From positions 192,809 to 256,808 of the forward strand of contig CAWGXL010000011.1 in assembly GCA_963826535.1 (NCBI GenBank): a stretch of DNA of 64,000 nt, given 5' to 3'. Every line of letters starts with the position of its first letter. The stretch's first letter is position 1. Positions 13,871 to 63,710 of the stretch are shown here, one piece after another. The DNA is from an uncultured bacterium. Lineage in GTDB: Bacteria; Patescibacteriota; Microgenomatia; Levybacterales; UBA12049. Under the pieces are notes generated by a model. It saw nothing but the letters and a program-made list of their open reading frames with translations, had not been told where the DNA came from and ran no database searches. Position numbers and translations under genes: made by a program.

Positions 13871-16021
13871 TTACGAAAATTCTTTAAATAATTTTGTTTG
13901 TATCCATCCGATCTCTACATAGGAGTACTCTTCTCCCAGTTTTTCTTTCACGGGTGACAGACGTTCAATGCCGAGTTGGCGGAAGGCCTTAATGATAATT
14001 TTCTGTTTAGTCTGTGGCACGAATGCATCTATATTTATTGGTTTTCCTTGAAGATATGCTTGTTGCAGATGTCTGTGAATTGTTTCTTCTGTGAATCCGC
14101 GAAGGCCTGCAATTTGTGCGACTGTTTTTCCTTTTTGAAACAAGGCGTGCGTCACAGCAATAGTTTCAGGGTTGGTGGATATTCTTTTGATTTTCTTTTT
14201 TCGATTAGTTTGTAACGGTGTAATATTTAGCGGCTTACAGTAGGTTATAATTTCATTCAGAAAAATTTGTCCATACTTTTTTAGCTTTTCTTCTCCAACA
14301 CCGTACATATTAGAAAATTGCTCCAGGGTTTGCGGAAAAAAGGCCGACATATCTTTCAAGCTTGTATCTGCAAAAATAATATATGGCGGTACTTTTTGAT
14401 CATCAGCTATTTTCTTGCGTAATACACGCAGGCGATTAAAGAGTTGCTTATCGATTTGGGTGTCTGACTCCTCTACTTTTTCGCTTTTACGAATTATCTG
14501 CTCTTGGGGCTTAGTTAACTGCACCTTTTCGCGACCTTTGAGCACTGCGGTGCTTTTTGGGGTTAAAAAGAGAATGCCGTATTGGTCCTGGCTTTGTTTT
14601 AAAAATCCCTGTTGTATGAGCTCATAGATAAATGTTTTTACATCGCCCTTGTTAAACTCTTCAATAATGCCATAGGTTGAGAGTAAATGGTGATTGTAGC
14701 GCAAAACATTTTTGTCTTTAGAGCCGGTGAGAATGCGGACTATATGAGTGACTCCAAAACGCTGTTGCGTTCGGTAGATACAAGAGAGGATTTTTTGGGC
14801 GGTGATTGTGGCGTCGAAAGTTTCCTTCGGGGAAAGACAATTGTCACAGGCGTCACACTTTTGCACTGCCGAGGTTTCAGCAAAGTATTGTAGAAGTTGA
14901 ACTCTGCGGCATATTTTACTTTGAGCAAAGTCGATCATGCGCTGCAGTTGTGCTTTGGCAATACGCTGCTCATCTTCTGATTGCTTATCGGTGATAAAGC
15001 GTTCATAGAAAAATTTGTCTCCATAACTATAGAGCATGAGGCAAACGCTGGGAAGTCCGTCCCGTCCGGCGCGGCCGGTTTCTTGATAGTAATTTTCAAG
15101 ACTACGCGGGAGATCATAATGAATAATATAACGCACGTTGGGTTTATCAATGCCCATGCCAAAGGCAATTGTGGCGACAATTAAATCGACATCTTCACGG
15201 ATAAAGCGATCCTGGTTAAGTTTGCGGATATTGTCAGGTAGGCCGGCGTGATAAGGCAGAGCTTTTATGCCTTGGTCCTGCAGACGCCGGGCGATATTTT
15301 CAACTGTTTTTCTCGATTGGCTGTAAATAATCCCCGACTCACTTTTATGCTCAGAAATGTAATCATATGTTTGAGTAAACGCGTCAAGTTTCCGGGTAAT
15401 CCGATACATTAAATTCGGGCGGTTAAAACTTGCAGTATATGTTCGTACATTATATAAACCGAGCCGCTCAATGATATCGTTTTTCACCCGTGGCGTGGCG
15501 GTGGCGGTAAGAGCAACAAGTGGTTTGTCGGGAAATTGTTTCTTGATCAGGTCAAGCTGGCGATATTCAGGCCGGAAATCATGTCCCCATTGCGAGATGC
15601 AATGCGCCTCGTCGATGGCAAAAAAGTTAATTGGTAGTTGTTTGAGGATATCTAAAAAGTGATCCTGTACCAGTCTTTCCGGCGCAACATAGAGAAGCGT
15701 GAGCTTATTGGTTTGCAATTGTTGCAAAACATTATGCTGTTCACTTAGCAATAAAGAGCTATTTAAATATGCGGCCTGGATGCCGTTTTGGACAAGATTG
15801 TCGACCTGATCTTTCATGAGTGATATAAGCGGAGAGATGACGATTGTAACGCCTTTTTGCATAATGCTCGGCAGTTGATAGCACAATGATTTTCCCCCGC
15901 CTGTGGGCATAAGGACAAAGACGTCTTTATTCGCCAGGATATCCTGAATAATTTCTTTTTGCAAAGGTCGGAATGACGAATAGCCAAAATATTGTTGTAA
16001 CGCAGTTTCAAGTTCACTCAT
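13871..16021 (-). CDS. recQ: ATP-dependent DNA helicase RecQ. Start at ATG 16021, alternative ATG at 16066; the track start 16081 is a TTG.
   Basis: FGYSSFRPLQKEII, Walker A PTGGGKSL, DEAH (AIDEAHCISQWGHDFR). C-terminal RQC and HRDC-like regions. 716-731 aa. Confidence 0.9.
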   Translation of the reverse strand: MSELETALQQYFGYSSFRPLQKEIIQDILANKDVFVLMPTGGGKSLCYQLPSIMQKGVTIVISPLISLMKDQVDNLVQNGIQAAYLNSSLLLSEQHNVLQQLQTNKLTLLYVAPERLVQDHFLDILKQLPINFFAIDEAHCISQWGHDFRPEYRQLDLIKKQFPDKPLVALTATATPRVKNDIIERLGLYNVRTYTASFNRPNLMYRITRKLDAFTQTYDYISEHKSESGIIYSQSRKTVENIARRLQDQGIKALPYHAGLPDNIRKLNQDRFIREDVDLIVATIAFGMGIDKPNVRYIIHYDLPRSLENYYQETGRAGRDGLPSVCLMLYSYGDKFFYERFITDKQSEDEQRIAKAQLQRMIDFAQSKICRRVQLLQYFAETSAVQKCDACDNCLSPKETFDATITAQKILSCIYRTQQRFGVTHIVRILTGSKDKNVLRYNHHLLSTYGIIEEFNKGDVKTFIYELIQQGFLKQSQDQYGILFLTPKSTAVLKGREKVQLTKPQEQIIRKSEKVEESDTQIDKQLFNRLRVLRKKIADDQKVPPYIIFADTSLKDMSAFFPQTLEQFSNMYGVGEEKLKKYGQIFLNEIITYCKPLNITPLQTNRKKKIKRISTNPETIAVTHALFQKGKTVAQIAGLRGFTEETIHRHLQQAYLQGKPINIDAFVPQTKQKIIIKAFRQLGIERLSPVKEKLGEEYSYVEIGWIQTKLFKEFS

Positions 16022-16067
16022 ATCTATTTTAATTATAGCAGTTACTAAATCGACTGCACTTGACATT

Positions 16068-16107
16068 GAACGATTGTTCAATTATAGTAGGTCTTGAACG
16101 ATTGTTC
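16068..16107. promoter_or_regulatory. Two LexA operators (Cheo/SOS box GAAC-N4-GTTC) in the recQ-lexA divergent intergenic region
   Basis: TGAACGATTGTTCAAT at 16067-16080 and again at 16095-16108, identical 12-mers GAACGATTGTTC 28 bp apart. They lie immediately upstream of lexA (ATG 16120) and next to or overlapping the recQ start. Confidence 0.65.
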
Positions 16108-46420: not shown

Positions 46421-46696
46421 TTAAGATTGATTTTGTAGATGATCCATGATCCACATTCTTGCAAGTGTTGTTGGGCCGATTCCTTTTTTATGTGCAAGTG
46501 TACGAAGTTTATTTAAAGTAGGAGAATCAAACCGTATAGTGATTCCTTCCGATAGATTTTTGGCAAAACGTGCTTTGATAGGATGGAATTCATCTATAAA
46601 ATCAGCTATGCTGTGTGTTTCCCAAAAATTTGCTTCTTCTTCACGACTAGCAAATGTAGGAATTTTAGTTAATCTTTTAGTTTTTGTTTTCATCAT
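46421..46696 (-). CDS. brnA: BrnA-family antitoxin
   Basis: EEEANFWETHSIADFID ... RFD motif typical of BrnA. 1-nt junction with the upstream BrnT. Confidence 0.6.
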   Translation of the reverse strand: MMKTKTKRLTKIPTFASREEEANFWETHSIADFIDEFHPIKARFAKNLSEGITIRFDSPTLNKLRTLAHKKGIGPTTLARMWIMDHLQNQS

Positions 46697-46980
46697 TATT
46701 TTTCACCTCCTTTCAAACGATTATAAAGCGCAATTTCTTTCTTATCCGCTTGATATGCTGTAATAGGATAATATCTCCCATTACCTTGTGTCTCCAGTAC
46801 TACTGCCAATATTTGATTTTCTTCAGTCGGACCCAGAAGTACTAATCGTCCTTTTTGCTGGCCAAGTAGTACCAATGGTGATCCATAGCAAACTGCTTCT
46901 ACTTTTTCCGGAACAATCTTATGATTCGCTATATGCTGCACATTCCAAGAATCCCAGATTAGTTTACGTATTAAGAGCAC
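46696..46980 (-). CDS. brnT: BrnT-family (DUF497) ribonuclease toxin
   Basis: WDSWNVQHIANHKI is the WDxxNxxHIxxHxV BrnT signature. Confidence 0.65.
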   Translation of the reverse strand: MLLIRKLIWDSWNVQHIANHKIVPEKVEAVCYGSPLVLLGQQKGRLVLLGPTEENQILAVVLETQGNGRYYPITAYQADKKEIALYNRLKGGEK

Positions 46981-47094
46981 ATTTTTATTGTAACACGATG
47001 CGTTACATAGTCAAGGGTTAGGTGAAAAATCCACTTCGAAGTTGGCAATTCTTTCAGCCCACTCAAAAACTTGAATTGAAGTGGTATAATTGTA

Positions 47095-47298
47095 TTGGAG
47101 GAAAAAGTTATGGAAAAGGAAGTGATAGGTGCAGCAGCTTTTGAAACTGTAGCGGCTTCAGATGTAGCAGGAGTAGAAAGTAGTGCCGGTGACGCAGGAG
47201 CTACAGAAGTAGGAGTTGGCGGGGGAGATTTTTTGGGGTTATTATTTTTTGGGTTCGCTTTGTATCTATTAAGTTCGATGACTTCTAATAGTAGATAA
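47095..47298 (+). CDS. Small protein (67 aa) with an Ala/Gly/Val-rich acidic N-terminus and a hydrophobic C-terminal helix
   Basis: ORF with locally elevated GC. No homology recognised. Confidence 0.2.
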   Translation: MEEKVMEKEVIGAAAFETVAASDVAGVESSAGDAGATEVGVGGGDFLGLLFFGFALYLLSSMTSNSR

Positions 47299-47345
47299 AT
47301 CAGAATATTTATTGCCGATGGGAATGAAATTCTACAATTAAGTTT

Positions 47346-48032
47346 CTAAAAAGGGATAGTGGGGTCTGTTCCGGGAGAATTATTTACAAAATGATTTCTG
47401 TAAATGCACAATTTGCAGGCTTCTGAAGGGATGGGTAATGGGCCATTTAATACTTCTGAAATTGATTTAATTAAAGTATAAAAACTTTGCATATTTTCTT
47501 CTATCGGATGCCAGGTTGGTTTAGCGGTAAAGAGTATTTTTCCATCTACGAGTTCCATTTGTTCAGGGTTTATACTGACTACTCCCATTCTTGAGATTTT
47601 AATTGGAGGCTTTCCATTATTGGGATTCTCGAGGGCATATTTGTAAGCATGGAGTTGAGATGCGTATTTTTGAATTTTTTCTTCGTCGGGTGTGGTGATT
47701 TTGAAATCAATGACTGTATAACTTCCGTCGTCCAACTTTGTGAGTATATCAAATCGGCCTGAGACAAAACAATCTTTTGTTCCCGGTATAGGGAGTGATT
47801 TTATAAATCCTTCTTGTATTTCTATGAGTCCTGATGGAAGAGTTGGATGGACATCTTTAAGATTCTTACCCATGATCGAGTTTTGAAGGAGACCGTTTAT
47901 TCTTCCAAACATAGAGGGGAATATACCGCTGGAGGAAATACCAAATTTTACTTTTTGATAATAGCAATGTTTACATTCTTCCCAAAGGTAGGAAAAATCA
48001 GAAGGGCTTAATTTATATAATTTAGGATTCAT
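47346..48032 (-). CDS. PD-(D/E)xK nuclease of the Cas4/RecB-like clade with a 4-Cys cluster
   Basis: N-terminal LSPSDFSYLWEECKHCYY (Cas4 S-x-S...C motif). GRFDIL ... VIDFKIT (D...D/ExK). QLHAYKYAL (QxxxY). C-terminal CKLC. Confidence 0.5.
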   Translation of the reverse strand: MNPKLYKLSPSDFSYLWEECKHCYYQKVKFGISSSGIFPSMFGRINGLLQNSIMGKNLKDVHPTLPSGLIEIQEGFIKSLPIPGTKDCFVSGRFDILTKLDDGSYTVIDFKITTPDEEKIQKYASQLHAYKYALENPNNGKPPIKISRMGVVSINPEQMELVDGKILFTAKPTWHPIEENMQSFYTLIKSISEVLNGPLPIPSEACKLCIYRNHFVNNSPGTDPTIPF

Positions 48033-48128
48033 ACTTAACAGTAACTACTGCAGAGATTATTATACTATAAGTTGTGGAGAAAAGCTAATTCCAGAGTTTT
48101 TGGAGTTGGGAGAGGGTTTGCTTCAGTC

Positions 48129-48247
48129 CTGGCAGGGTGAGTCTTTTTGGTTTTAATCAGATGCAGGTGATTGTAAGTGGGGAGTATTCTGAGTGCAATA
48201 AAGCGATTACGATTGACAATCAATCCAATATACAACTGCTCAGGTAA
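48129..48247. repeat. About 120-bp direct repeat, copy 1, upstream (minus-strand sense) of the Cas4-like nuclease gene
   Basis: GGTGAGTCTTTTTGGTTTTAATCAGATGCAGGTGATTGTAAGTGG ... GCGATTACGATTGACAATCAATCC. About 90% identical to 49093-49213 with small non-triplet indels. Confidence 0.6.
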
Positions 48248-48322
48248 CCACAGCAAGTATATTGGGAATATAAAGCTACCAAGCTAATTCAAGTCGAAGG
48301 TTGTAATTTAAGCGGCATTATT

Positions 48323-48832
48323 TTATATAATACCCTTACTTTTTAATTCTTGAAACATTGTTATCGATCTTTCAACACCCGACATCTTAAGAGCTTCAAT
48401 ATCTTTACCTTCTTTTAATTCTTTTATAGCTATATAAGCAAAATTTTGGGTCACTCTGGGTTCCATTTTTTTAGTAACGAGAAGCGTTTTGACTTGCCCA
48501 TCATCTTTATAAAATTTTCCATTTAAAACATCCAGTATGGTCTTAGCCATATTGTCTACATCTCGCGATTTATAGTCTTTTTGTGATACGAAATACTGAA
48601 CTATAAAAACAAAAACCTCTTTGTCTGTAGGAAATTGCTTTGTGTGTTTTAAGTCGCTTTCTACTCTTTGAAGAAAAGTTTGTCTGAATGTCCCCAAGCC
48701 GCTTTTTTCATCTTTTCTTCTTGCCTCAGAAAAATTGTCCTTTTTAAAGGCTTCTTGAGTTGAAGGAATAATCATATCAATGCCGATATCAAAATCTACA
48801 GAAGTTTTAATATTTGCATTTTTCCTCGCCAT
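48323..48832 (-). CDS. RusA-like Holliday-junction resolvase (phage-type)
   Basis: SRDVDNMAKTILDVLNGKFYKDDGQV parallels E. coli RusA [27 protein letters not shown]. Confidence 0.5.
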   Translation of the reverse strand: MARKNANIKTSVDFDIGIDMIIPSTQEAFKKDNFSEARRKDEKSGLGTFRQTFLQRVESDLKHTKQFPTDKEVFVFIVQYFVSQKDYKSRDVDNMAKTILDVLNGKFYKDDGQVKTLLVTKKMEPRVTQNFAYIAIKELKEGKDIEALKMSGVERSITMFQELKSKGII

Positions 48833-49312: not shown

Positions 49313-52300
49313 TTATGCACCAACAAAGCTTGTTGAATCATGATAGTGCTCATAAACAAAGTTATATATTTCTACTCCTTTACTATCACAGTCTTGTTTT
49401 GAATAAGTCGGTTCAGGTAGTGAATCATATAGAATATCAGAAATTGTTGTTTTAACTCCTGCGCGAGCTATCTCTTTTTCTCTCCAATCAATGACAAGCT
49501 TTTCATGTTTAAGTTTTGCTAAAAGATCTTTTGCAATCTTTTTTACTTTTTCTCGCTCATCAGGATTCAAGTTATCCTTTTGTAGAAGATCAAAAATTGC
49601 GAGTTCCTCTTCAGTCAAATTTTCTTTTACTGCTCTTTGTTCTTCTTCGCTTAACTCTTTCGCAAGTTCAACGAGGTCATCGAAAAGCTGATCGATATCA
49701 TGAGCTCCGGTGTTATACACATTTAGCATTGCCAAAAGTCTGTCCATGAACTTTGCACGTATTTTATTTTTTTTCATCATATCGATAATCTTTTTTTCCA
49801 GATCATCTCTTAGTGCCTCAACTTGTAAGTTTTTATTTTCAATCTTGTAAAAGAATTCATGTAAAGCATCGACATCGAGTGCGCTTAAATCCTTGAGTCT
49901 TTTATAATGTGGGACAACGTATTCACCAGCTCTAATTGACTTATCCAATAATAATTCCAAGTCTCTTTTTACCGGTGAAGTATCAATACTTCGAGCGCCA
50001 ACGTCTCTTATGCGCGAAGCAATTATACGAATTGCGGTTACCTCATTGTAATAATCTTCTGCTGAAGGATCAGGTAAAACAGATTTGTAGGCAGAATAAA
50101 GGTCTGCTGACAGGTTTAAAAATTCATTCTTTCTTTTTTGATCCACTAAAATTTGGTTGGCGTATTTATCGATAAGCAATAATTTCTGTTCATTAGGTGA
50201 TTTAAGCAAAACTTCAATATCTATTTTTAATCCTTTAAGCATTTCTTTAGTTTGCTTTAAAATATTTAACAAATCTTTCAAAAGCTCATCTTTACTTTTG
50301 ATTATTTCATCGTCTCCTGACTTGGTCGCAGCATAAAGGGCTAATGCTTTTTCAACGTTCTTAAAGACTCCAATATAATCAACTATCATGCCGTTTGTTT
50401 TCCCTTCGGATACCCGATTTGCTCTCGCAATTGCTTGCATCAAGGTATGATTTTTTAAAGGCTTGTCAAGATAAAGTGTTGAAAGCGTCGGGACATCAAA
50501 ACCGGTTAGCCACATTGCGCAAACAAATACAATTTTTAGATTGCTATCATCTTTCTTGAATTCTTCTTCAAGGTTTTCATTCTGTATTCGAGCTCGAAGC
50601 GGTCTCATTTCTATTTCAAACGGTTCAAGATCAGCAATTTCATTCTGTGATTGACTTACGACGACAGCCATATCTATTTTTTCAAGTTTTTCAATTTCTT
50701 CACGAATTTTCTCTTGCTCAAAATCATTCTCTGCTCTTGATAAATCCAACCGCAATTTAGCTAAATGCCTATCCCATTCAGCTTTTACTTTTGTATACAT
50801 ACGCACTGTTGTTTTTTTATCGATTGAGACGACCATTGCTTTTCCCTGATAACCCCGTCCGACAAAATGCTGCACAATATCCCTTGCTATCGCATTTAAT
50901 CTGTCTTCACGGGTTATCAAATGATAGAAAGTTGAAAATTCCTGTTCTACCTTTTCCTCTTCCTCATCGTTCATTTCGTAGTAATTCATTATTTTGCCAA
51001 GTTCTACTTCAAGCTGTGGGTTGATATTCTCAAGTTTGGCTACGCGATTTTCATAATATAAAGGAACCGTTGACCCATCTTTTACTGATTGACCAAAATT
51101 ATATACGGACACATATTCTCCAAAAGTACTCTTTGTTTTTTCTTCACCACGACTTAAAAGTGGAGTTCCTGTAAAACCAATAAATGAAGCATTTGGTAGT
51201 GCTTTTCTCATGTTCTGGGCGTAAGTATCGTATTGGCTTCTATGAGCCTCATCCGTCATAACAATAACATCATCCCGATCTGACACCGCTCCTGGGATAT
51301 CCTGAAACTTCTGAATAGTCGTAAAAATTTGTCTGTGATCCTCTTTTAGTAATAATTTTAAATCTTTAATTGAATCAGCCCTTACATGTTTTTCATAAAC
51401 TGCACCCACGTTGGCAAAATTTTTATATGCTTGGCCATCGAGTTGTTCGCGATCAGTAACAATAATAAAAGTAAAATTCCCAGGAATTTTTCTGAATACT
51501 TTTTGTGAGAGATAAACCATAGCAAAAGATTTTCCAGATCCCTGTGTATGCCAAAAAACTCCAAGTTTTCCGTTGAGTTCTTTTCTCTTTATAACTCTTT
51601 CAAATGCACGATTGACTCCGTAGTACTGAAAATACCTGGGAACTATTTTTTTAGTTTCTCCAAGTGATTCATCATAAAGAATAAAGTTTTCAAATATATC
51701 AAGAAGTCTTTTTTTGTCACAAATTCCTTTGACAAGAGTAGCTAAATCTTTTTTTGTCTCATCTTTTTCAGATTCAACTTTTTTCCACTCGTTAAAATAT
51801 TCAAAAGGGGATGTTAGGGAACCAAATTTATTCTCAATGCCATTGGAAATTACGATTCCCATGTTGTACCAGAAGAGGTGTGGAATGGTGTCTTTATAAT
51901 CCCGGATATTGTCTTTATACGCATCTACCAAACTTTTATGAGAGGCTTTTAGCTCTAATAGAAGGAGGGGAATACCATTAACAAAAAGAACTACATCTGT
52001 TCGTCTCGTGTACATCTCGCCCACCACCCATAGCTGGGAAACACAAAGAAAATTATTGTTTTCAGGGATTTCAAAATCAAAAAACTTCACATTCTCAATT
52101 TTTGAATTTCCATCTTGTGTTTTTATGTTTACGCTGAATCCATCTTTTAATAGTTTGTAGACTTCTTGGTTGGCTTTAACTAAAGTTGTATTTGATCTGT
52201 CTCTGGTTATCTCAGCAACTGACTGTTGCAAGGCTTTTTCAGGTAATGATGGGTTTATTTTGGTTAGAGCAGGGAGTAAATACTTTTTGAGGATTACTTC

Positions 52301-52438
52301 GCCGCGGTGTTCCCGGCCAAACTTTGCGTCTTCCGCGTCTATAAAAGCATTTATATGACAGGTTTCATCAGTCCACGCTTCTTTAATGAGTTTTATGACT
52401 GTTTGTTCAACTAAATTGTCTTCGCTAAATTGATTCAT
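49313..52438 (-). CDS. hsdR: Type I restriction enzyme R subunit
   Basis: HsdR N-terminal domain. Walker A HTQGSGKS. DEAH (MTDEAHRSQY). Helicase motifs throughout. 1041 aa. Confidence 0.9.
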   Translation of the reverse strand: MNQFSEDNLVEQTVIKLIKEAWTDETCHINAFIDAEDAKFGREHRGEVILKKYLLPALTKINPSLPEKALQQSVAEITRDRSNTTLVKANQEVYKLLKDGFSVNIKTQDGNSKIENVKFFDFEIPENNNFLCVSQLWVVGEMYTRRTDVVLFVNGIPLLLLELKASHKSLVDAYKDNIRDYKDTIPHLFWYNMGIVISNGIENKFGSLTSPFEYFNEWKKVESEKDETKKDLATLVKGICDKKRLLDIFENFILYDESLGETKKIVPRYFQYYGVNRAFERVIKRKELNGKLGVFWHTQGSGKSFAMVYLSQKVFRKIPGNFTFIIVTDREQLDGQAYKNFANVGAVYEKHVRADSIKDLKLLLKEDHRQIFTTIQKFQDIPGAVSDRDDVIVMTDEAHRSQYDTYAQNMRKALPNASFIGFTGTPLLSRGEEKTKSTFGEYVSVYNFGQSVKDGSTVPLYYENRVAKLENINPQLEVELGKIMNYYEMNDEEEEKVEQEFSTFYHLITREDRLNAIARDIVQHFVGRGYQGKAMVVSIDKKTTVRMYTKVKAEWDRHLAKLRLDLSRAENDFEQEKIREEIEKLEKIDMAVVVSQSQNEIADLEPFEIEMRPLRARIQNENLEEEFKKDDSNLKIVFVCAMWLTGFDVPTLSTLYLDKPLKNHTLMQAIARANRVSEGKTNGMIVDYIGVFKNVEKALALYAATKSGDDEIIKSKDELLKDLLNILKQTKEMLKGLKIDIEVLLKSPNEQKLLLIDKYANQILVDQKRKNEFLNLSADLYSAYKSVLPDPSAEDYYNEVTAIRIIASRIRDVGARSIDTSPVKRDLELLLDKSIRAGEYVVPHYKRLKDLSALDVDALHEFFYKIENKNLQVEALRDDLEKKIIDMMKKNKIRAKFMDRLLAMLNVYNTGAHDIDQLFDDLVELAKELSEEEQRAVKENLTEEELAIFDLLQKDNLNPDEREKVKKIAKDLLAKLKHEKLVIDWREKEIARAGVKTTISDILYDSLPEPTYSKQDCDSKGVEIYNFVYEHYHDSTSFVGA

Positions 52439-53957
52439 TTTCTGATATTTCTGGTAGGTACTTTTTCAATACGTCCACCATGGAATTCTTTTTATCGCCT
52501 GAGGTCAAAAAAGATAAAATTAGATTTTGATAGCCATTTTTAGCTAGCTCAAGATCAGTTTGAATTTCTTTTACAAGTCCTTTGTGAGGATAAGATTTTA
52601 ATATTTCAACTATATCTGCGTCATCTGAAGGTAGGTTAATTTTCTCCATTTCAGTATCCATCTCCGAAATAATACTTTTTTTGAAAGATTCGTAATCAGT
52701 CTTAGATTTCAAGGCTCCAAATTTTTCATCAAAAAGCCTATTTATTCTATACTTTGAAGCACTAAATAAAACTTCGTCCTTTCGTTGTTTGTATATACTT
52801 TTTATTTTTTCAGTCACCTGTGCTTTCTTATCGGTTTTTGACAAATGTTGAAGCACAAAATCAATGAACTCTGGAACCAGGAATATATTCTCAATTTCAT
52901 TTAAAGCAATGTTAAAAATAGATTCGGATTTTAAAGACTCTAGTTGGTTATCTGATCTAAAATCTCTATCTATTAAACCAAACACTTTTTTGTCGTGCAG
53001 AGATGTATTATTTCTAAGTCCTTTGACTGATTCGATAACTTTTTCACCCGAACCTCTGGCAATTACTGTGAAATTTTCGTAGTAAATCTGGTAAATTTGA
53101 GAATCAAGCGAACCTTTGTCACCCTCTACGAATAAAATTGGCTTCCTGCTTCCAAGAATCTCAAGGAAAAGTTCATCCGGGATAATTCCATTTTGGTCAA
53201 CTTCTTTCCACTCCCATGTGTTTTCTTTAAATGATTGAACCCATATGACTTTGCTGGCGGGTTTACTTACAGCAAAATCTAAATCGTGTGTTATGTAAAC
53301 AAATGAACAATCACTCCGGAATTCTTCAAGTTTGTTCCATAACCGTACCATTAACGCTTTATGTAAATGCAATTCGGGCTCATCAATTATCAGAATGCAG
53401 TTATCTTCAGCTAAGACGGTCTGAGATATTAAATACAAACCCACTTTTTCCCCATCACTCATTTCAGCTCCAGAATATTCGTTATTATCGCTTACCGCTC
53501 GAATACGATCTTTTTCCAACTTTAGCGGCCTGTAAGGGAAAATAAAATTCCAAACCTCCAAAACTTTTTCCTTAACGGAAACTGGTGTATCTTCTTTAGT
53601 AATACTGCCATTTAGATTTATGCTTTTAATTACCTCCTCATTTCTTGTTGCTTCTTGAGCAAATAACGAGATTAAGACTTGTTGATAATCATTTTGAGGC
53701 TCTACTGGGGGATGATTTTTATAACTGCTTCTTAATTGAGTATTTGCCGTCTCATAATCTTGCCTTTGTACTACCTCAGACAATTGTAAATATCTTTGGG
53801 CGGATATTCGTTTTGTAGGGTTGTTAATCTGTTCAAGCTTAGAGCCCAACCTGGTTTTCCCAGCCCCGTTTGCCCCAACTATTACTATGTTTTTTTCAAA
53901 TTCGAAAGATTCCACGACTGAGGATACGCCAGATTTAGGAAATTGAATAGTTTTCAT
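52425..53957 (-). CDS. ABC-type ATPase (AAA_15/21-like) fused to a C-terminal TOPRIM (DUF4435/OLD-like) domain, inserted between hsdS and hsdR
   Basis: Walker A VGANGAGKT. Walker B/D-loop ILIIDEPELHLH. C-terminal LFVEGDKGSLDS and FGLIDRDFRSD (TOPRIM Glu and DxD). Overlaps hsdR by 14 nt and hsdS by 4 nt. Confidence 0.6.
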   Translation of the reverse strand: MKTIQFPKSGVSSVVESFEFEKNIVIVGANGAGKTRLGSKLEQINNPTKRISAQRYLQLSEVVQRQDYETANTQLRSSYKNHPPVEPQNDYQQVLISLFAQEATRNEEVIKSINLNGSITKEDTPVSVKEKVLEVWNFIFPYRPLKLEKDRIRAVSDNNEYSGAEMSDGEKVGLYLISQTVLAEDNCILIIDEPELHLHKALMVRLWNKLEEFRSDCSFVYITHDLDFAVSKPASKVIWVQSFKENTWEWKEVDQNGIIPDELFLEILGSRKPILFVEGDKGSLDSQIYQIYYENFTVIARGSGEKVIESVKGLRNNTSLHDKKVFGLIDRDFRSDNQLESLKSESIFNIALNEIENIFLVPEFIDFVLQHLSKTDKKAQVTEKIKSIYKQRKDEVLFSASKYRINRLFDEKFGALKSKTDYESFKKSIISEMDTEMEKINLPSDDADIVEILKSYPHKGLVKEIQTDLELAKNGYQNLILSFLTSGDKKNSMVDVLKKYLPEISENESI

Positions 53958-55096
53958 GATTTTAATTCCCTCATTCCTGTCACAAGCTGAGGGATAAGTA
54001 TATCACAAATTTTTTCCAGGCTATAACTCTGTGCTTCAAGGTTATCTCGTAAATTGAAAATTTTTTGGACATTTATAGTAAATTGATTAAGTAGGCTGTT
54101 AGGCGGAACTATTATCTTTTTACCATATACATAGCTTCTATTAAGCCCTGGTACTGCTGCGTCTCCGGCAATATAACTTTGAGATTTTAAAAGATAATAA
54201 ATGAATTCTAAGTTCAAAGATGATTTAACATAATAAGTGGTGTCAATTGGATAAAAGTCATTTTTAACCCAAAATACAGAGCCTATATTGCCCTTTCTGC
54301 CTATTACAATTCCCGGTCCCGGAACAAATTTTTCGTTATGAAAACCAACTCTACCACTAGAACCATATACAGAAATATTTCCGTTAACTCTTGAGTCTTC
54401 TTTTAATGCTTTTCCATATGCAAGCTCTAATATATCACTGAGCTTCTTAACTTCCCACCCTTCTGGTATTTTGCCTAGAAGAGAATCGATCATTTTTACA
54501 TTTTCATGCCCGGGGAAATTGAATTTTATGAACCATTCTGTATAAAGCGTTTGTGCCATTTCCTCCAAAATCTTTATCCGCTTTTCGTTGTTTTCAATTA
54601 AATCGTTGTAGGCAGAAAGGACAGAAGAAATTTGAACTTGGGTTTTCAGATCAGGTAGATTTATAATTATATTTCTTAAATCTTCGAGTCTAATACCTGT
54701 AACTGTTGACCCATTCCCTATGTTTTGTAACTTAATTCCTGAATAAATTAAAGTCCAAAGTAAAAAATCATTATTAATTTTCTCATTAGGGTAAACTGCT
54801 TTTAAATCTTGATTTATTGCAGTACCAATTGTTGTTTTTACTACACGTCCCAATCCCATCCTAGTTGGCATTACTATGGTTCCAGCACTGACGAAATTTG
54901 AGGCACTATTATCTAAACCTTCTTGAGTAATATAATCTTGAGTTGAATCTAAATAATATCTGCCGTCTTCAAAGTCTTTAACACTTGCCCAAGGAATTGC
55001 ACCTCCCCAATATTGTAGATTACTTTTTGATGGAGTCCCCCCTCCTACAACCTTCTCTAACACATCTCCTAATTTTTGTTTTGTCCAAGTTGTCAT
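53954..55096 (-). CDS. hsdS: Type I restriction-modification specificity subunit (two target-recognition domains)
   Basis: N-terminal WTKQKLGDVLEKVVGGGTPSKSNLQYWGGAIPWASVKDF and a repeated central/C-terminal conserved region. 380 aa. Confidence 0.8.
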   Translation of the reverse strand: MTTWTKQKLGDVLEKVVGGGTPSKSNLQYWGGAIPWASVKDFEDGRYYLDSTQDYITQEGLDNSASNFVSAGTIVMPTRMGLGRVVKTTIGTAINQDLKAVYPNEKINNDFLLWTLIYSGIKLQNIGNGSTVTGIRLEDLRNIIINLPDLKTQVQISSVLSAYNDLIENNEKRIKILEEMAQTLYTEWFIKFNFPGHENVKMIDSLLGKIPEGWEVKKLSDILELAYGKALKEDSRVNGNISVYGSSGRVGFHNEKFVPGPGIVIGRKGNIGSVFWVKNDFYPIDTTYYVKSSLNLEFIYYLLKSQSYIAGDAAVPGLNRSYVYGKKIIVPPNSLLNQFTINVQKIFNLRDNLEAQSYSLEKICDILIPQLVTGMRELKS

Positions 55097-55098
55097 TG

Positions 55099-56094
55099 TT
55101 ATTTTTTCTTCAAATATTTTTTTACTTCTTTGTCAAAGTCGGAGAAGTATTTTTTGTCTTCATCTTTTCGATATTTTTCATACTCGTTATGAGCTATGGT
55201 TTCTGCTTTTTTGGCGCTGATTGATCCTGCGTCTTTTAGTATTTGTTTTTCGCTTAATTTCAAAAATTTATCGAGCTTAGACACCCAATCACTCATTTTC
55301 ATCAATCTGGCATTTGTTGCTTGTAGCTCGGCAAAGTCTAAATAAAGCGACACAATCAAATTTAATTGTTTGATTTCCGGTTCTGAGAGATAATTTTTGG
55401 CGATTGTTGTATCTGAGGCATGGATCTTTGATCCTTTGAAACTTGTTAAACCCATGTTTGGTTGTTTGCTATTGGCTCTTGTCGCGATAACTTCGGCGGC
55501 TGTGTGTCCATGGACTGCGTAGTGCATTTTATTTTGCACAGTTGCAAAAAATTCTTGAGTTAACTTATTATCTTTGCTGTAATCAATACTTGTGGCGTAT
55601 ATATCAGTGACTTTTTGATAAAAGTTTCGCTCACTGGCTCGAATATCCCGTATGCGCTCCAGAAGTTCATCGAAATAGGATGCTTTTCTGCCACCTTCTT
55701 TAAGACGCTCGTCATCAAGCGTAAAGCCTTTGACTATATATTCCCGGAGTCTTTGTGTGGCCCAAATACGAAATTGAGTGCCGCGAATTGATTTAACACG
55801 ATAGCCCACGGAAATAATTACATCGAGATTGTAGTATTCAACAGAACGCTTTTTCTCAACACCACCTTCTGTTTGAACTGTCAAGTAATCCTTGACAGTT
55901 GATTCTCTTGATAATTCAGCTTCTTTATAAATATTATTGACATGGAGACTAATGTTTTGTTTTGTGGTTTCAAATAGCTCAGTCATTTGAGCCTGGTTTA
56001 ACCAGGCTGTTTCGCCTTCAAAACGTACATCAACTTTTGTTTTACCGTCTGGTGTTTGGTAGAGAATAATCTCTGATTTATTTTTGCTTGTCAT
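55099..56094 (-). CDS. RhuM-family (virulence_RhuM) protein embedded in the type I R-M operon
   Basis: YQTPDGKTKVDVRFEGETAWLNQAQMTELF is the hallmark N-terminus of RhuM-family proteins. The hsdM-hsdS slot is the usual genomic position for this family. Confidence 0.7.
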   Translation of the reverse strand: MTSKNKSEIILYQTPDGKTKVDVRFEGETAWLNQAQMTELFETTKQNISLHVNNIYKEAELSRESTVKDYLTVQTEGGVEKKRSVEYYNLDVIISVGYRVKSIRGTQFRIWATQRLREYIVKGFTLDDERLKEGGRKASYFDELLERIRDIRASERNFYQKVTDIYATSIDYSKDNKLTQEFFATVQNKMHYAVHGHTAAEVIATRANSKQPNMGLTSFKGSKIHASDTTIAKNYLSEPEIKQLNLIVSLYLDFAELQATNARLMKMSDWVSKLDKFLKLSEKQILKDAGSISAKKAETIAHNEYEKYRKDEDKKYFSDFDKEVKKYLKKK

Positions 56095-56143: not shown

Positions 56144-57721
56144 CTATATTATAGTTTTCCAATCTTCTTCAATTTTCTTTTCTAAGCTGTGTGCCTCTTT
56201 TGTGAGAGTTTTGAATTCCGATGTTAGTTCGTTCATTCGTGCTTCAAATTCCACATTATCCATTTCTTTCTCAACTATTTCGATATATCTTCCAGGATTT
56301 AAGGAATAATCATTTTCTTTTATTTCATCAAGGGTGGCAGCTTTGCAACGGCCTTTTATGTCTTCATATTTTCCGTATCCTTCCTCACCACGATATCGCC
56401 TGACAATTCCTGCGATTTCCTGTATTTGTTCATCGCTCCAGTTGTTATGTGCGCGATCTACTGGGGTAAAGATATTTTGTGTGTTGATAAACAATATTTT
56501 ATTTTGTCTATCTGTTCCTTTTTTACCTTTGTCCAAAAACCATAATGTGGAAGAAAGTGTTACATTTAGAAACATATTGGGCGGTGTTGAAATAATCACA
56601 TCAACAAAATTTTTCTCAATAAGTTTTTTTCTAATCTCCTTCTCAGCATGTCCAGCATCAGTTGCGGAGTTGGCCATGACAAAACCAGATCTACCATTAG
56701 AATTTAAGGCGCTCGCAAAGATTTGCATCCAAAGGTAGTTTGCATTTGTAATGTTGCCTTGTTGGGTAGTAGGAAGTCCAAGAAAATAACGTGGATCGCG
56801 GTGTAAGCGCTCTGGATCAATAATTACTTGACCATTCTCGTCAACACCAGCAACATTAAATGGTGGATTAGCTAGAACAAAATCAAATTTACCGATACTG
56901 TTGTGTGCGTCTTCATAATATGAGTTTGCCGGAAGAATCTTTCCTGATAGACCATGAATTGCTAAATTCATTTTGGCAATTTTAATTGTTGCGTCTTTAG
57001 ACTCTTGACCATAAATTGTTACTTGATCCATTACTTTGGATTTATTTTTTAAATGTTCTTCGACAAACTTAGCTGAATGAACGAACATTCCACCGCTTCC
57101 ACAAGCCGGATCAAAGATCCGGCCATGGTATGGCTCTATAACTTCAACCAAAAGCTTAACTATAGATTGAGCTGTAAAAAATTCTCCACCATTTTTCCCT
57201 TCTGCAAGAGCAAAATTTCCTAAAAAATATTCATAGATCTCTCCAAACGCATCTCCTTCAATGTCTTCTGGAATCTGATTAAAATTTTTAAGAAGAGTAA
57301 TAAGGATCCTATTATTTTCATCTGCTTTTTGCGAGAGAAGTGAGTAATTTTGAGGCAGAACACCAGCGAGATCTCTGTTATATTCTTCAATTGACTTCAT
57401 TGCTTCGTTAATTGCTTTGCCTATGTTTTCATTTTCTGGAAGGCTGATTAGATGTGAATATGTGGCTTTTTCTGGTACATATAATACGCCTCTAGCTTTG
57501 TAGTCTTCTGGAGAGACTGGTCGCTGTCTGGTTGACTGTGAAGAAATTCTATCTTTCCCTATTTTTACTTTGACTTTTTTAAATCGTACATCGGCAAATT
57601 TAAGAAAAATGAGTCCTAGAATTGGAGCAGAAATTTCATTTAAATTTAGCCCACTATTGGCACGCATTTGCTCAGCCGATGCCCACAGTTGATCTTGAAG
57701 TTGCTTTTTTTGTGCAGTCAT
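56144..57721 (-). CDS. hsdM: Type I restriction-modification N6-adenine DNA methyltransferase subunit
   Basis: HsdM N-terminal domain. Motif I DPACGSGGMF. Motif IV VLANPPFN. Confidence 0.9.
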   Translation of the reverse strand: MTAQKKQLQDQLWASAEQMRANSGLNLNEISAPILGLIFLKFADVRFKKVKVKIGKDRISSQSTRQRPVSPEDYKARGVLYVPEKATYSHLISLPENENIGKAINEAMKSIEEYNRDLAGVLPQNYSLLSQKADENNRILITLLKNFNQIPEDIEGDAFGEIYEYFLGNFALAEGKNGGEFFTAQSIVKLLVEVIEPYHGRIFDPACGSGGMFVHSAKFVEEHLKNKSKVMDQVTIYGQESKDATIKIAKMNLAIHGLSGKILPANSYYEDAHNSIGKFDFVLANPPFNVAGVDENGQVIIDPERLHRDPRYFLGLPTTQQGNITNANYLWMQIFASALNSNGRSGFVMANSATDAGHAEKEIRKKLIEKNFVDVIISTPPNMFLNVTLSSTLWFLDKGKKGTDRQNKILFINTQNIFTPVDRAHNNWSDEQIQEIAGIVRRYRGEEGYGKYEDIKGRCKAATLDEIKENDYSLNPGRYIEIVEKEMDNVEFEARMNELTSEFKTLTKEAHSLEKKIEEDWKTII

Positions 57722-57912: not shown

Positions 57913-58033
57913 GTTTGCGAACCGAAATATTGTTGGGGAGTGTATGGCTCAAATTATAATCTGCTATAATAGCCTTACAAAGTTATAATATTACTATGTT
58001 ATACTGATTAGGTTATATCAGGAAAGGATATTT

Positions 58034-60086: not shown

Positions 60087-62987
60087 TTAATATTTATATT
60101 TCAGACTACCTTGTTGAGTAAATAATTGCAATAGAATAATGCCAGGCTTGATTTCACTTGTGTAGGTGGTAGTACCAGGACTTTTGGTATAGATTTTTGT
60201 TGTGTTGCTTGAAGACGAATAAAGTGTAAAGATTTTTTTGTCATCTTTGAGACTGTAATATTGATCCAATTGTTTTATTTTATTGGTTTTATCAGTAAGA
60301 GCCAGGGTAAAAAAGACATTTGGGTCAAGAGATAGAGATGGGTTGCTATTGTATTGCAGACTATTAACGTTTAGTGCAACTTGCTTATCAATCTTTACTT
60401 TACCAATGGTTAAGAGAAGCTTATTGCCTGCCTGATCGGCAATAGTGTATTTCGGGCGAAGTGGTTGGGTTTTATCAACTGTAAAGGTGGTTGATCCCAA
60501 ATTATCTTTTCCTGTAACTATACTGTCAAAACTTGATAAGTCGTAACCGATTTGTGCTTCGGGTGAAGTTTTATCAATATTTATTCCATTAAAGTTTAAT
60601 TCACTTTTATTCCCTGCATTATCTTCACAAATACTTTTTACCGACTGATTCTTGCCCTCGGTTTTTACAATAATTGGTTCACTAACTATTTTTACACCTG
60701 AAGTATTGTCTGTGCAATTAAACTTAACTTGCACATCTGCATTGGTCCATGAACCACTAGCATATGGTAACCCTTTTGTAAAAGCAACGGCAGATAAGGT
60801 TGGGGGTTTTGAATCATATTTGAAATTAAATGAAGTAGAACCGATATTTCCCGCTTTATCGGTACAATATCCCTCAACGATAGCATTCTCATTATCCGGT
60901 TCTTTGTAGATGATTGATTCTGTGCAGTTGTCAATTCCTGAGTCGTAGTCCTGTCCGGTAAATGAAATAGTTACCGGATGATTATACCAGTCGTTTGTGT
61001 CAGGGGTTCTATCAGCAGATGCTGATAAAGCCGGTGGAGTTTTATCGATGTCAAATTCTATTGAATTTATGTCCTCAATGTTACCATCGTTATCTTCAGA
61101 GTAATATTCAATTTTATGATGGCCTTCGGTAGTAAACATAAGTGGGTCGGAATATTTTTGCCAATCCCCGCTCTCCAGTTTATAAGCGGTATATTTGACT
61201 CCCAAACCCCCATCATTATCTATAGAATTAAAAATTAATTGAGTCTCAGATCTGAACCAATTCAACTGTCCTTTTTCGCCTTGTAAATCTGCGCTCGTTG
61301 TGGGAGCAATTGTATCCAGTCTTTCTCCCATTAGGGCAAAATATGTCAGGTGGTCTACTTGAGCGCTTGCTTTATTATTGAGAAAATTAATTAATGATTC
61401 TTCTTTTACCCAATTCTCGCGATCTGTGCTTGAGTAAATAGATAAAGAACCTATCTTATAACGGGAAATATCGGCTTGCGTGAAGTCAATAACCACAAGC
61501 ATTGGATTAGTTAGAATAGTTATTAAGGAGCCAAGGGGGTCTTTAAGTATAATATCCATTACAGATCCGACAGATTCCAGATTGTCTGAGGATTTTGCTG
61601 CGGGTGCAGCTTTCATTTCAATAGTTGATCCAACAGCTACCGTGTTTGCTGGAAGCTCGACCAAGTATTTTCCTGTTTTAAAAATAACCCCATTGGCAGG
61701 AATAGTTGCGTCAAGTGCATCAAGCTTTTTATTCCATAGATAGTAACTTTTATTTCCGGTTTTCTGCTTGCTATTATAGATGAAGGAATAATTTTCCCAC
61801 GGATCTTGGTCTATAGACTGCCAGCCAAACGGATCAACAAGTCCATCAGGAATATTGTCTTCAAAATTTCCGTCCTTGTTCTTGTCTTCAATTACCATAA
61901 AATGGATATGGGCACCAACTTCTCCAGCCGGACTCACGTTTCCTGTGAAACCTACTTTGCCAATAATTTGTCCGGAATTTACACTGACAGGCTGATTTGG
62001 AGTGTGTGTAATAAGACCTTTATGATCCAGATGATAGTATCTTGTTTGGAATCCGTTTTCATGATCTATATGAATGGCATTGCCACATGCACCGCAAGTA
62101 TTTACAAAGGTAGCAATGCCAGATGCTGCTGCAAGGACATTGTCTTCAAATTCTACTTCGGCAGGGTTTCCGTAGTCATAACCATCATGGCGGGAGTAAC
62201 TTAGTCTAGTACTTATTTCATTTTTATAAGTTGTAATTTGGTTTAAAAAATCTTTAGGTTCGATTAGTCCACTACTTAATAATGGATATGTATGATCAAA
62301 AAAGGTATTAATAGACATTGCCGCCTCATTAAAGTCCATTCCTTTTTCTTCATAATCCCACGGTAAATCGAGGAATGGTTGAGGGGGTGTGGGGGTGGGT
62401 GGAGATGTAGGGGTTGGCGTGGGAGTGGGGGTTGGTGATGGGCCGGGGGCGTTGGTGTTTACTAGATGTATTGGGTCGCTGGCTATGCTGAAACCACAGA
62501 TATCGTAGAGCGCAACATGCACTCTGTTTGCTCCGACTCCAAAGAGGTGGGTGATGTCTTTGGGTGGAAAGGAATCAAGTTGGGTGCAGTTTGTTTGATA
62601 TGAATGGGTAAATGATAATGGCGAGCTATTGTCTCTGGTAACTGTGATATTAATCGCATCGTCGGCCCAGGTATTACCCGAACCATCGGAATTGCGGCTG
62701 AGTATAATATTGCCAGAGGTATAATTAATAATGATATCCTTTTGAAAAAACGTCTCACCAACAGTTGTAGGCGGACGCGCTGGAACACCGGAGGTGATAA
62801 GGTAGGGAAATGTTGCGGCAAGTGCTTTCTGTGGAAAGATAGTAAATAATAATATAAGAATCAGAATAATACGAGAAAAGTAGTAAAATTTAGTAATAGG
62901 ATTGTGAAGATTTCTCATTTTCATTATTATAGTTATACGAGAGTTGTAACTATTTATAATATAGAGATAATAGTTGGGATTTGTCAA
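60087..62987 (-). CDS. Giant secreted M23-family metallopeptidase (LytM-like) with a Pro/Thr linker and C-terminal Ig-like repeats
   Basis: Signal peptide. PTPTPTPTPTSPPTPTPP linker. M23 motifs HDGYDYG (HxxxD) ... GAHIHFMV (HxH). Repeated beta-rich C-terminal modules. 966 aa. Confidence 0.7.
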   Translation of the reverse strand: MTNPNYYLYIINSYNSRITIIMKMRNLHNPITKFYYFSRIILILILLFTIFPQKALAATFPYLITSGVPARPPTTVGETFFQKDIIINYTSGNIILSRNSDGSGNTWADDAINITVTRDNSSPLSFTHSYQTNCTQLDSFPPKDITHLFGVGANRVHVALYDICGFSIASDPIHLVNTNAPGPSPTPTPTPTPTSPPTPTPPQPFLDLPWDYEEKGMDFNEAAMSINTFFDHTYPLLSSGLIEPKDFLNQITTYKNEISTRLSYSRHDGYDYGNPAEVEFEDNVLAAASGIATFVNTCGACGNAIHIDHENGFQTRYYHLDHKGLITHTPNQPVSVNSGQIIGKVGFTGNVSPAGEVGAHIHFMVIEDKNKDGNFEDNIPDGLVDPFGWQSIDQDPWENYSFIYNSKQKTGNKSYYLWNKKLDALDATIPANGVIFKTGKYLVELPANTVAVGSTIEMKAAPAAKSSDNLESVGSVMDIILKDPLGSLITILTNPMLVVIDFTQADISRYKIGSLSIYSSTDRENWVKEESLINFLNNKASAQVDHLTYFALMGERLDTIAPTTSADLQGEKGQLNWFRSETQLIFNSIDNDGGLGVKYTAYKLESGDWQKYSDPLMFTTEGHHKIEYYSEDNDGNIEDINSIEFDIDKTPPALSASADRTPDTNDWYNHPVTISFTGQDYDSGIDNCTESIIYKEPDNENAIVEGYCTDKAGNIGSTSFNFKYDSKPPTLSAVAFTKGLPYASGSWTNADVQVKFNCTDNTSGVKIVSEPIIVKTEGKNQSVKSICEDNAGNKSELNFNGINIDKTSPEAQIGYDLSSFDSIVTGKDNLGSTTFTVDKTQPLRPKYTIADQAGNKLLLTIGKVKIDKQVALNVNSLQYNSNPSLSLDPNVFFTLALTDKTNKIKQLDQYYSLKDDKKIFTLYSSSSNTTKIYTKSPGTTTYTSEIKPGIILLQLFTQQGSLKYKY

Positions 62988-63005: not shown

Positions 63006-63710
63006 CTAGGGATGCTTTACTGTGTTTTCTCTAAAACTGAAGTAGGAATTGCGGCCGATTATTAGGTGGTCGAGCATGTTGATGCCCATGATTTTGCCTG
63101 CTTCGAAGAGGAGTTTGGTTACTTTGGTGTCTTCGTCGGAGGGGTCGGGGTCGCCGGAGGGGTGGTTGTGGGCGACGATGAAGGCGGCGGCGTGGCGGCG
63201 GATGGCGGCTTCTAGGGTTTCTCTGGGATGGACGAGGCTTGAGGTGAGGGTGCCGATAAAAATTGTGTCTATGGCGAGAATTTGGCTTTTGGTGTTGAGG
63301 GAGATGACGACAAAATGTTCTTTGGCTGAGTTTCCGATTTTGTTCTTAACAGAGGAATAAATTTCTTCTGGTGAAATTGGTTTTTGTTTGCTTTTGATTG
63401 TTATAGGAATGGAATTTCGCTCGAGACGGCGGGCTAATTCCAGACTGGCTTTGATCTGACAGGCTTTGGCAAACCCCAGACCTTTTATGGTTTGAAGATC
63501 TTGCAGGGAGGCTTCATTGAGTCCTTCTAACGATCCGAAATGGCTGAGGAGTTTTTGGCTGGTTGTTATGACGGATTCGCCGGCGATGCCCCGTCCAAGA
63601 ATGATTGCGAGTAATTCATGGATTGAAAGTGCATCCGGTCCTAGGTTGGCAAGCCGTTCTCTGGGGCGTTCTTCGGGTGGCAGGTCGCGGATGGTATAGG
63701 TATTTCTCAT
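63006..63710 (-). CDS. radC: RadC-family JAB/MPN domain protein
   Basis: N-terminal HhH (LSIHELLAIILGRG). JAMM motif HNHPSGDPDPSDED. Markedly GC-richer than the flanking genes. Confidence 0.85.
   Translation of the reverse strand: MRNTYTIRDLPPEERPRERLANLGPDALSIHELLAIILGRGIAGESVITTSQKLLSHFGSLEGLNEASLQDLQTIKGLGFAKACQIKASLELARRLERNSIPITIKSKQKPISPEEIYSSVKNKIGNSAKEHFVVISLNTKSQILAIDTIFIGTLTSSLVHPRETLEAAIRRHAAAFIVAHNHPSGDPDPSDEDTKVTKLLFEAGKIMGINMLDHLIIGRNSYFSFRENTVKHP

Follow-up and report, generated by a model that had tools for sequence, protein, structure and literature searches.

The canonical PARIS system of E. coli B185 (PDB 8UX9, 8V45-8V49) is encoded in a P4 satellite hotspot by two genes, one for AriA and one for AriB. 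AriB, a Toprim nuclease, cleaves tRNA and works as a dimer (PMC12409363), and the published route to PARIS activation is release of AriB from an AriA6 scaffold, after which it dimerises (PMC11464382, PMC12409363). Single-gene forms have also been catalogued: the detection profiles of Rousset et al. 2022 cover AAA_21+DUF4435 and AAA_15+DUF4435 fusions, which that study included in PARIS (PMC9122126), and such fusions are likewise recognised in PMC11464382 and PMC12409363. Here we analyse ariAB, a gene for a 510-amino-acid (aa) protein that, unlike the E. coli B185 system, combines both modules in one polypeptide and lies in a restriction-modification (R-M) operon, of type I. The source DNA (hereafter the window) is a 64,000-nucleotide (nt) stretch of contig CAWGXL010000011.1, assembly GCA_963826535.1, from an uncultured Patescibacteriota bacterium of the candidate phyla radiation (CPR). 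Judged from its sequence, the predicted protein joins an ABC ATPase to a Toprim nuclease of the AriB type and so is a single-gene PARIS (AriAB), an assignment we make because of its match to the AriAB profile, its Pfam domains and its conserved catalytic residues.

The gene occupies positions 52425..53957 on the minus strand, with its stop codon at 52425-52427, and was defined from the open reading frame, PADLOC, Pfam and an AlphaFold2 model. The PADLOC AriAB model PDLC02982 matches residues 20-506 over profile positions 44-569 of 570 (372.8 bits, E = 7.6e-112); weaker PADLOC matches are to AriB, the short AriA model PDLC04164 (residues 25-243 against positions 31-250 of 253), PtuA, GajA and other ABC-ATPase defence proteins. 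Pfam identifies AAA_21 (32.8 bits; cut-off 27 bits) and DUF4435 (PF14491; 44.2 bits, residues 271-439; cut-off 27 bits), while AAA_15 scores 19.2 bits, under its cut-off; the PARIS detection thresholds of Rousset et al. are 27 bits for AAA_21 and 32 bits for AAA_15. An initial annotation, made from the sequence without database searches, had proposed a PARIS-like fusion of an ABC ATPase and a TOPRIM nuclease, and these matches bear it out; the reading frame and the four motifs on which it relied (VGANGAGKT, LIIDEPELHLH, FVEGD and GLIDRDF) are all present in the translation.

The N-terminal half (aa 1-255; 53193..53957, minus strand) is a predicted minimal Rad50/SMC-like ABC ATPase head. It carries a Walker A motif at G28-T35 (53853-53876, minus strand; IVIVGANGAGKT), a Q-loop at Q54, a signature motif at S167-E170, a Walker B motif at D192-E193 (53379-53384, minus strand; Walker B / D-loop CILIIDEPELHLH) and an H-loop at H224. 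The C-terminal half (aa 256-510; 52428..53192, minus strand) is an AriB-like DUF4435 module comprising a Toprim core and then a helical domain (aa ~366-510), with candidate Toprim residues at E278 (53124-53126), D285, D330-x-D332 (52962-52970) and E356/N357, all on the minus strand; ILFVEGDKG contains the Toprim glutamate and VFGLIDRDF the DxD. Across 31 homologues with at least 37% identity, G28, N30, G31, G33, K34, Q54, S167-D168-G169-E170, D192-E193, H224, E278, D285, D330 and D332 are invariant, so that the acidic residues, together with the DUF4435 match, uphold the reading of the C-terminal region as a Toprim nuclease. In the same alignment the catalytic cores are best conserved, and the ABC insert (residues 56-160) and the C-terminal helical domain (366-510) are most variable.

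Structure prediction agrees with this division. An AlphaFold2 model of the full chain, built on the 31 homologues, has a pLDDT score (predicted local distance difference test) of 88.8, and its top Foldseek matches are the ABC heads of PtuA, Rad50, GajA and Thermus OLD, not transporters; these heads dominate the search, which carries no information on the nuclease half. Modelled separately, residues 255-510 reach a pLDDT of 93.3, and the C-terminal half displays the AriB fold of a Toprim core with a helical extension. Some sources name the protein an ABC transporter ATPase, a label we reject: scores fall far under curated cut-offs (best NCBIfam transporter or ABC-F match 47 bits against a cut-off of 380; Pfam ABC_tran 22.1 bits, under its cut-off of 25), no permease adjoins, and the neighbours are hsd genes. 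The N-terminal domain is thus not of the transport kind alone.

Several results pull the other way and set the protein at a great distance from E. coli PARIS, the one PARIS that has been characterised. Foldseek with the model of residues 255-510 returned no significant match. A family profile search of PDB sequences found retron PtuA (E = 2.8e-7) and Rad50, matched AriA marginally (E = 0.013, over 45 residues around the signature and Walker B motifs, query 165-209 against AriA 366-410) and did not detect AriB; a single-sequence phmmer search of the same sequences missed both AriA and AriB, its only matches being weak ones to P-loops of the transporter type. AriA has K39 as its Walker A lysine and D392/E393 as Walker B (PMC10802264), a spacing of ~353 residues from K39 to D392 as compared with ~158 from K34 to D192 here. 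The ~200 residues of AriA insertion that are absent from ariAB correspond to the coiled-coil arms from which the hexamer and the pocket that binds Ocr are formed, and in the AlphaFold2 model the ABC insert holds short helices alone (68-77, 91-116 and 128-139). From this spacing we conclude that the coiled-coil arm is absent, and with it both the Ocr pocket and the A6B3 scaffold that releases AriB. Because the two modules are covalently joined and the arm is absent, the literal E. coli mechanism, in which AriB is freed from the AriA6 scaffold, is excluded; likewise, Ocr-type recognition should not be assumed for this protein, since the AriA pocket is absent. Moreover, our literature search found no experimentally characterised member among fused PARIS proteins.

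Fused PARIS is nevertheless a catalogued class, and the protein described here is an ordinary member of it. The initial annotation had called it a possibly undescribed variant, shorter than typical fused PARIS, and neither description survives comparison with the family. It is not undescribed, because a PADLOC AriAB model matches it, it has thousands of relatives, and Rousset et al. 2022 list the fusion (PMC9122126). A protein search in which candidates were scored recovered at least 4,392 cluster representatives at E <= 1e-5; nearly all full-length homologues measure ~500-550 aa and carry both Pfam domains, and PADLOC's AriAB profile spans 570 positions, so that 510 aa is a normal length for the family. 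Among the carriers of homologues are 61 plasmid records (Burkholderia, Bacillus mycoides, Campylobacter, Escherichia, Salmonella and others), where the annotation reads 'DUF4435 domain-containing protein' or 'AAA family ATPase', and one temperate Oenococcus phage. The class defined by PDLC02982 shares the architecture and family of ariAB with no structural difference, and ariAB, like most members, needs no partner gene; what distinguishes the copy reported here is its Patescibacteria/CPR host and its site within a type I R-M operon. We found no paper on fused PARIS in CPR R-M operons, though so limited a search does not prove the arrangement unpublished. Nor did we find earlier descriptions of a fused-PARIS clade in CPR that favours the hsdS-hsdR slot and has copies at the end of type II operons; to report it is an incremental advance.

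In the window, ariAB is the fourth gene of a minus-strand array of five closely packed genes running from 57721 to 49313 in the order hsdM-rhuM-hsdS-ariAB-hsdR, with intergenic spacings of 49, 2, -4 and -14 nt. The genes around it encode HsdM (56144..57721, minus strand; 525 aa; Pfam HsdM_N and N6_Mtase, E = 1.2e-84), HsdS (53954..55096, minus strand; 380 aa; two stretches of Pfam Methylase_S, E = 3e-33) and HsdR (49313..52438, minus strand; 1041 aa; Pfam HSDR_N, SWI2_SNF2, T1R_D3-like and T1RH-like_C), which on these domain matches are bona fide type I methyltransferase, specificity and restriction/translocase subunits. The likeness to the prrC position, between hsdS and hsdR, that the initial annotation had pointed out therefore stands. 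It had also noted reading-frame overlaps with both neighbours, which are real, although it had exchanged the partners: the start of ariAB overlaps the hsdS stop through an ATGA (53954..53957, minus strand; coding-strand read ...AAA TCATGA AAA), and its 3' end overlaps the hsdR start codon by 14 nt (52425..52438, minus strand), the TAG stop of ariAB lying 14 nt into hsdR, 3' of the hsdR ATG (coding-strand read ...GAAAATGAATCAATTTAG). Both overlaps are compatible with translational coupling of ariAB, which is probably co-transcribed with the R-M operon. A low-confidence candidate promoter, TTGTAA-16-TATAAT (57953..57980, minus strand), lies ~230 nt upstream of hsdM and is the best minus-strand consensus match. 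Scanning the operon for promoter and terminator consensus sequences gave no more matches than shuffled sequence (29 against 32.6 expected), so the operon boundaries and the single-operon reading rest on gene spacing and on conservation of the arrangement.

We compared this arrangement with that of relatives at two depths. The close set comprises 14 distinct loci, the window counted, from Patescibacteria/CPR genomes and unbinned metagenome contigs, at 55-68% identity; the metagenome scan returned no relatives when a single protein was the query and was rerun with an alignment of the CPR clade. The wider-family census covers the best 80 species-level genome loci, searched by tblastn with the Hsd proteins of the window, a search whose sensitivity sufficed to pick up Hsd proteins of 23-32% identity in other loci. 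The expectation that the gene would recur in the hsdS-hsdR slot of related genomes held: six of the 14 close loci have the order hsdS-ariAB-hsdR, namely the window, L001 (= L090, Peregrinibacteria), L085/L086, L089, L091 and L093, and the slot is found again in the distant locus L113. All junctions in these six loci are overlaps or gaps of at most 11 nt. Between hsdS and ariAB there is a 4-nt overlap in L001 and there are 3-11 nt gaps or small overlaps in L085, L089, L091, L093 and L113; between ariAB and hsdR we found a 4-nt overlap in L085, a 3-nt gap in L001 and an 8-nt gap in L089.

In two further close loci (64-65% identity), ariAB is the last gene of a type II R-M operon: L081-L084 encode a C protein, an NgoPII-type endonuclease, a C5 methylase and, after a 1-nt gap, ariAB (L081, 444-3989), and L172 encodes a HindVP-type endonuclease, a C5 methylase, a 292-aa protein and ariAB (3015-7509). 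One of these two type II loci adjoins an integrase, and the attachment of fused PARIS to type II systems has apparently not been remarked on before. One locus, L170, is an island in which ariAB lies 3' of an N6/N4 methylase and an HNH gene and is followed by RhuM and a PD-(D/E)XK gene. The remaining five loci (L087, L171, L092, L002 and L003; 55-63% identity) have no adjoining R-M genes, so that about nine of the 14 distinct CPR-clade loci are linked to R-M. In the wider family, by comparison, type I embedding was seen at a single species-level locus of the 80 (L001), most copies have intergenic gaps on both sides, and no recurrent partner gene emerged: no Pfam family occurs in more than two of 56 tight same-strand neighbours. 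Distant metagenomic homologues (29-37% identity) do lie within type I operons at L113 (M-S-ariAB-R), L115 (M-ariAB-S-R) and L123 (ariAB-R).

Two observations indicate that the association with R-M arose more than once. Between L089 and the window, HsdR is 32% and HsdM 40% identical as against 63% for AriAB, and in a neighbour-joining tree type I, type II and standalone copies are interleaved. On these sequence comparisons, the acquisition of an R-M context by ariAB appears to be a repeated event. Since relatives are found with type II systems, alone, or beside an HsdR of 32% identity, ariAB does not seem to depend on a particular Hsd complex. The pattern fits an autonomous module that has repeatedly joined R-M operons, especially in CPR genomes, rather than an obligate partner in the manner of PrrC.

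PrrC of the EcoprrI type IC locus is the closest positional parallel: like ariAB, it combines an ABC-type nucleoside triphosphatase with an RNase-type effector, occupies the hsdS-hsdR slot and has been proposed as a back-up under restriction inhibition (PMC12707154). Its effector, however, is a HEPN-type anticodon nuclease, whereas that of ariAB is Toprim/DUF4435; the convergence is one of position and concept, and the nucleases are not homologous. We rejected membership of PrrC/RloC, given a C-terminal half that is DUF4435/Toprim and not HEPN, and neither family appears among the Pfam matches or the 25 best PADLOC matches of the protein. PrrC is almost exclusively embedded, according to Payne et al. 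(10.1101/2024.01.29.577857), in contrast to the single embedded locus among 80 in the ariAB family. PrrC and PARIS have lately been classed together in a review as 'RM guardian systems' (PMC12707154).

Other systems place an ATPase and a Toprim nuclease within methylation-based defence. RloAB, in Campylobacter jejuni hsd loci, and AbiL resemble ariAB in bringing an ATPase and a Toprim-like protein into type I R-M loci, and RloAB is cited by Deep et al. as a 'PARIS-like system within an RM system' (PMC10802264); RloAB, though, has two genes and an RloB-family (PF13707) Toprim, where ariAB has one gene and DUF4435. We therefore set RloAB aside, as the protein is encoded by a single gene and has no RloB Pfam match. 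The PARIS of the Salmonella D23580 BREX island and the embedded defences of Payne et al., including the ABC-Toprim fusion HEC-04, are likewise ABC-ATPase/Toprim abortive modules nested in a methylation-based system, their hosts being BREX or Hma as opposed to type I R-M, the fused form and a CPR bacterium here. In a systematic study, Payne et al. found both known and new defences inside Hma, BREX, DISARM and type I R-M systems, and proposed that embedded PARIS or Gabija could fire when Ocr blocks the surrounding system (10.1101/2024.01.29.577857). The idea of PARIS and other embedded ABC-ATPase defences as back-ups in BREX and type I R-M is thus already published (10.1101/2024.01.29.577857; PMC10802264; PMC11341690).

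Taken together, we consider it probable, if well short of certain, that ariAB is a self-contained single-chain sensor-effector of the PARIS type, carried as cargo of a type I R-M operon and backing up restriction. In the scheme that follows, we infer the trigger, the substrate, dimerisation and the abortive outcome. In an uninfected cell, the ATPase head would hold the fused nuclease off. A phage-derived cue, by analogy with PARIS most plausibly an anti-restriction or other early protein, would activate it; the nuclease domains may then pair, possibly through ATP-driven dimerisation of the heads, by a rearrangement in cis. The paired nuclease would cleave some essential nucleic acid, most likely specific tRNAs if AriB is a guide, whereupon translation would stop and the infection would be aborted. 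Embedded in the R-M operon, the gene would be expressed and transferred together with the first-line system, the one that anti-restriction proteins of phages attack, and no physical dependence on the Hsd complex would be required. Two points count against parts of this scheme. The related Toprim nucleases OLD and GajA cut DNA, which makes the tRNA target an extrapolation. As for the cue, the BREX-embedded PARIS of Salmonella did not respond to Ocr in tests (PMC11341690), so not even canonical PARIS is always triggered by anti-restriction proteins.

A different account makes the protein a guard of the restriction enzyme itself, as the initial annotation had suggested: binding to HsdMSR would keep it latent, and a phage inhibitor that disables the type I enzyme would free it, so that it would sense R-M integrity. 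We think this unlikely. The slot is that of prrC in EcoprrI (PMC12707154), the frame overlaps with both neighbours would favour stoichiometric co-synthesis, six CPR loci and also the distant L113 keep the slot and the tight spacing, and the absence of the trigger-binding coiled-coil of AriA makes an external sensor conceivable. Yet close relatives at 59-65% identity are joined to type II R-M or have no adjoining R-M, 79 of the 80 species-level homologues are not embedded, L089 has the gene in a type I system with an HsdR of only 32% identity, the copy in L115 sits in the other slot, between hsdM and hsdS, and no HEPN/PrrC nuclease domain appears among the Pfam matches or the 25 best PADLOC matches. 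PrrC-style coupling to type I inhibition is on this evidence somewhat disfavoured. Also improbable in our estimate is a narrower proposal, that the fused PARIS of Patescibacteria, having lost or never had the coiled-coil trigger pocket, became a dedicated R-M companion in the type I hsdS-hsdR slot and at the 3' end of type II operons, monitoring the R-M machinery or its inhibition and not an Ocr-like protein directly. If true, it would be a Toprim-based functional convergence with PrrC, activated by rearrangement or dimerisation in cis and not by release of a subunit.

The nature of the target separates the back-up effector outlined above from an OLD- or Gabija-like DNA nuclease, whose Toprim domain would nick or degrade phage or host DNA under ATP control, adding a second DNA-targeting activity beside R-M in place of translation shutdown. 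An ATPase and a Toprim domain in one chain is the architecture of OLD and GajA, the full-chain Foldseek search matches GajA and Thermus OLD, PADLOC gives weak GajA matches, and one source names a 38%-identical homologue (P0118) 'OLD family protein'; Pfam and PADLOC, however, assign DUF4435/AriB and not an OLD Toprim, and no GajB-like helicase adjoins or lies nearby, which leads us not to class the protein with Gabija or OLD and to regard a DNA-directed activity as doubtful. We see a still slimmer chance that ariAB is a selfish hitch-hiker, a toxin/antitoxin-like module that enters R-M operons as permissive and often transferred loci with no synergy with restriction. Payne et al. raised the same possibility (10.1101/2024.01.29.577857), and it would suit the interleaving of standalone, type I and type II contexts in the tree and the unrelated cargo (RhuM, KilA-N, DUF4145 and a Schlafen-like gene) gathered in the nearby hsdM-hsdS slot. 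Against it, the R-M linkage of about nine of 14 CPR-clade loci, with precise operon placement, is far above the rate in the wider family, and such a history is compatible with a back-up function, not exclusive of it. We accordingly retain the single-chain PARIS-type effector as the preferred explanation.

What interest the locus retains comes from how single-chain PARIS works and from the tendency, specific to CPR, to ride in R-M operons; current understanding is not overturned, and the published 'guilt-by-embedding' picture is extended. With neither release from an AriA hexamer nor the known trigger arm, how a chain of ~500 aa senses infection and licenses its nuclease is a tractable question. 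The CPR clade amounts to a natural experiment: proteins that are nearly identical occur within type I operons, at type II operon ends and alone, and comparing them could show if embedding alters function or linkage only. The operon is also a case of layered defence, R-M and two cargo genes embedded in it, in ultra-small episymbiotic bacteria with a phage biology that is little known.

The second embedded cargo gene of the window, rhuM (55099..56094, minus strand; 331 aa), occupies the hsdM-hsdS slot and matches Pfam Virulence_RhuM (E = 2.3e-115) and PADLOC PDC-S05 (E = 7e-146); RhuM is candidate PDC-S05 of Payne et al. (10.1101/2024.01.29.577857). In related type I operons this slot holds variable cargo, while the hsdS-hsdR slot always holds ariAB. 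In addition to RhuM in the window, the hsdM-hsdS junction contains KilA-N and a 260-aa unknown protein in L001 (6999-8759), a 227-aa unknown in L085 (6156-6839), DUF4145 in L089 (6142-6738), and a Schlafen AlbA_2/HATPase_c_4 protein with two unknowns in L091 (3349-6256). RhuM-family genes recur near fused ariAB outside type I operons as well (L170, 5671-6618; L079, 11702-12686; L001, 19150-20139; L080, ~15144-16085), directly 3' of ariAB in L170 and in the distant Opitutaceae locus L079, hinting at co-occurrence of RhuM and AriAB.

In four CPR loci a radC gene (JAB/MPN) is found no more than a few kb from ariAB, at 63006-63710 (minus strand) in the window, 1083-1754 in L091, 234-905 in L170 and 7793-8476 in L171; it abuts hsdM in L091 and lies just 3' of the standalone ariAB in L171, and its neighbourhood may be a favoured insertion site for defence cargo. 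At L060 (8537-11626, Allosphingosinicella), the ariAB homologue forms part of a 1,029-aa frame, either a longer N-terminal fusion or a start-codon artefact of crude reading-frame calling.

Just 3' of hsdR, positions 46421-48832 of the window (minus strand) resemble a small defence or mobile island between the EF-G and Dus housekeeping genes. This region includes a BrnT-like/CopG toxin-antitoxin pair at 46696-46980 and 46421-46696 (the BrnT-like match scores 26.2 bits, under the Pfam threshold of 34.5 bits), a PD-(D/E)XK Cas4-like nuclease at 47346-48032 and a RusA-family resolvase at 48323-48832. Elsewhere in the window, a 966-aa protein (60087-62987, minus strand) is probably large and secreted or surface-borne, judging by its hydrophobic N-terminal segment, its linker rich in Pro/Thr and its repeated modules at the C-terminus; next come two Pro/Thr-rich proteins, of 170 and 296 aa.

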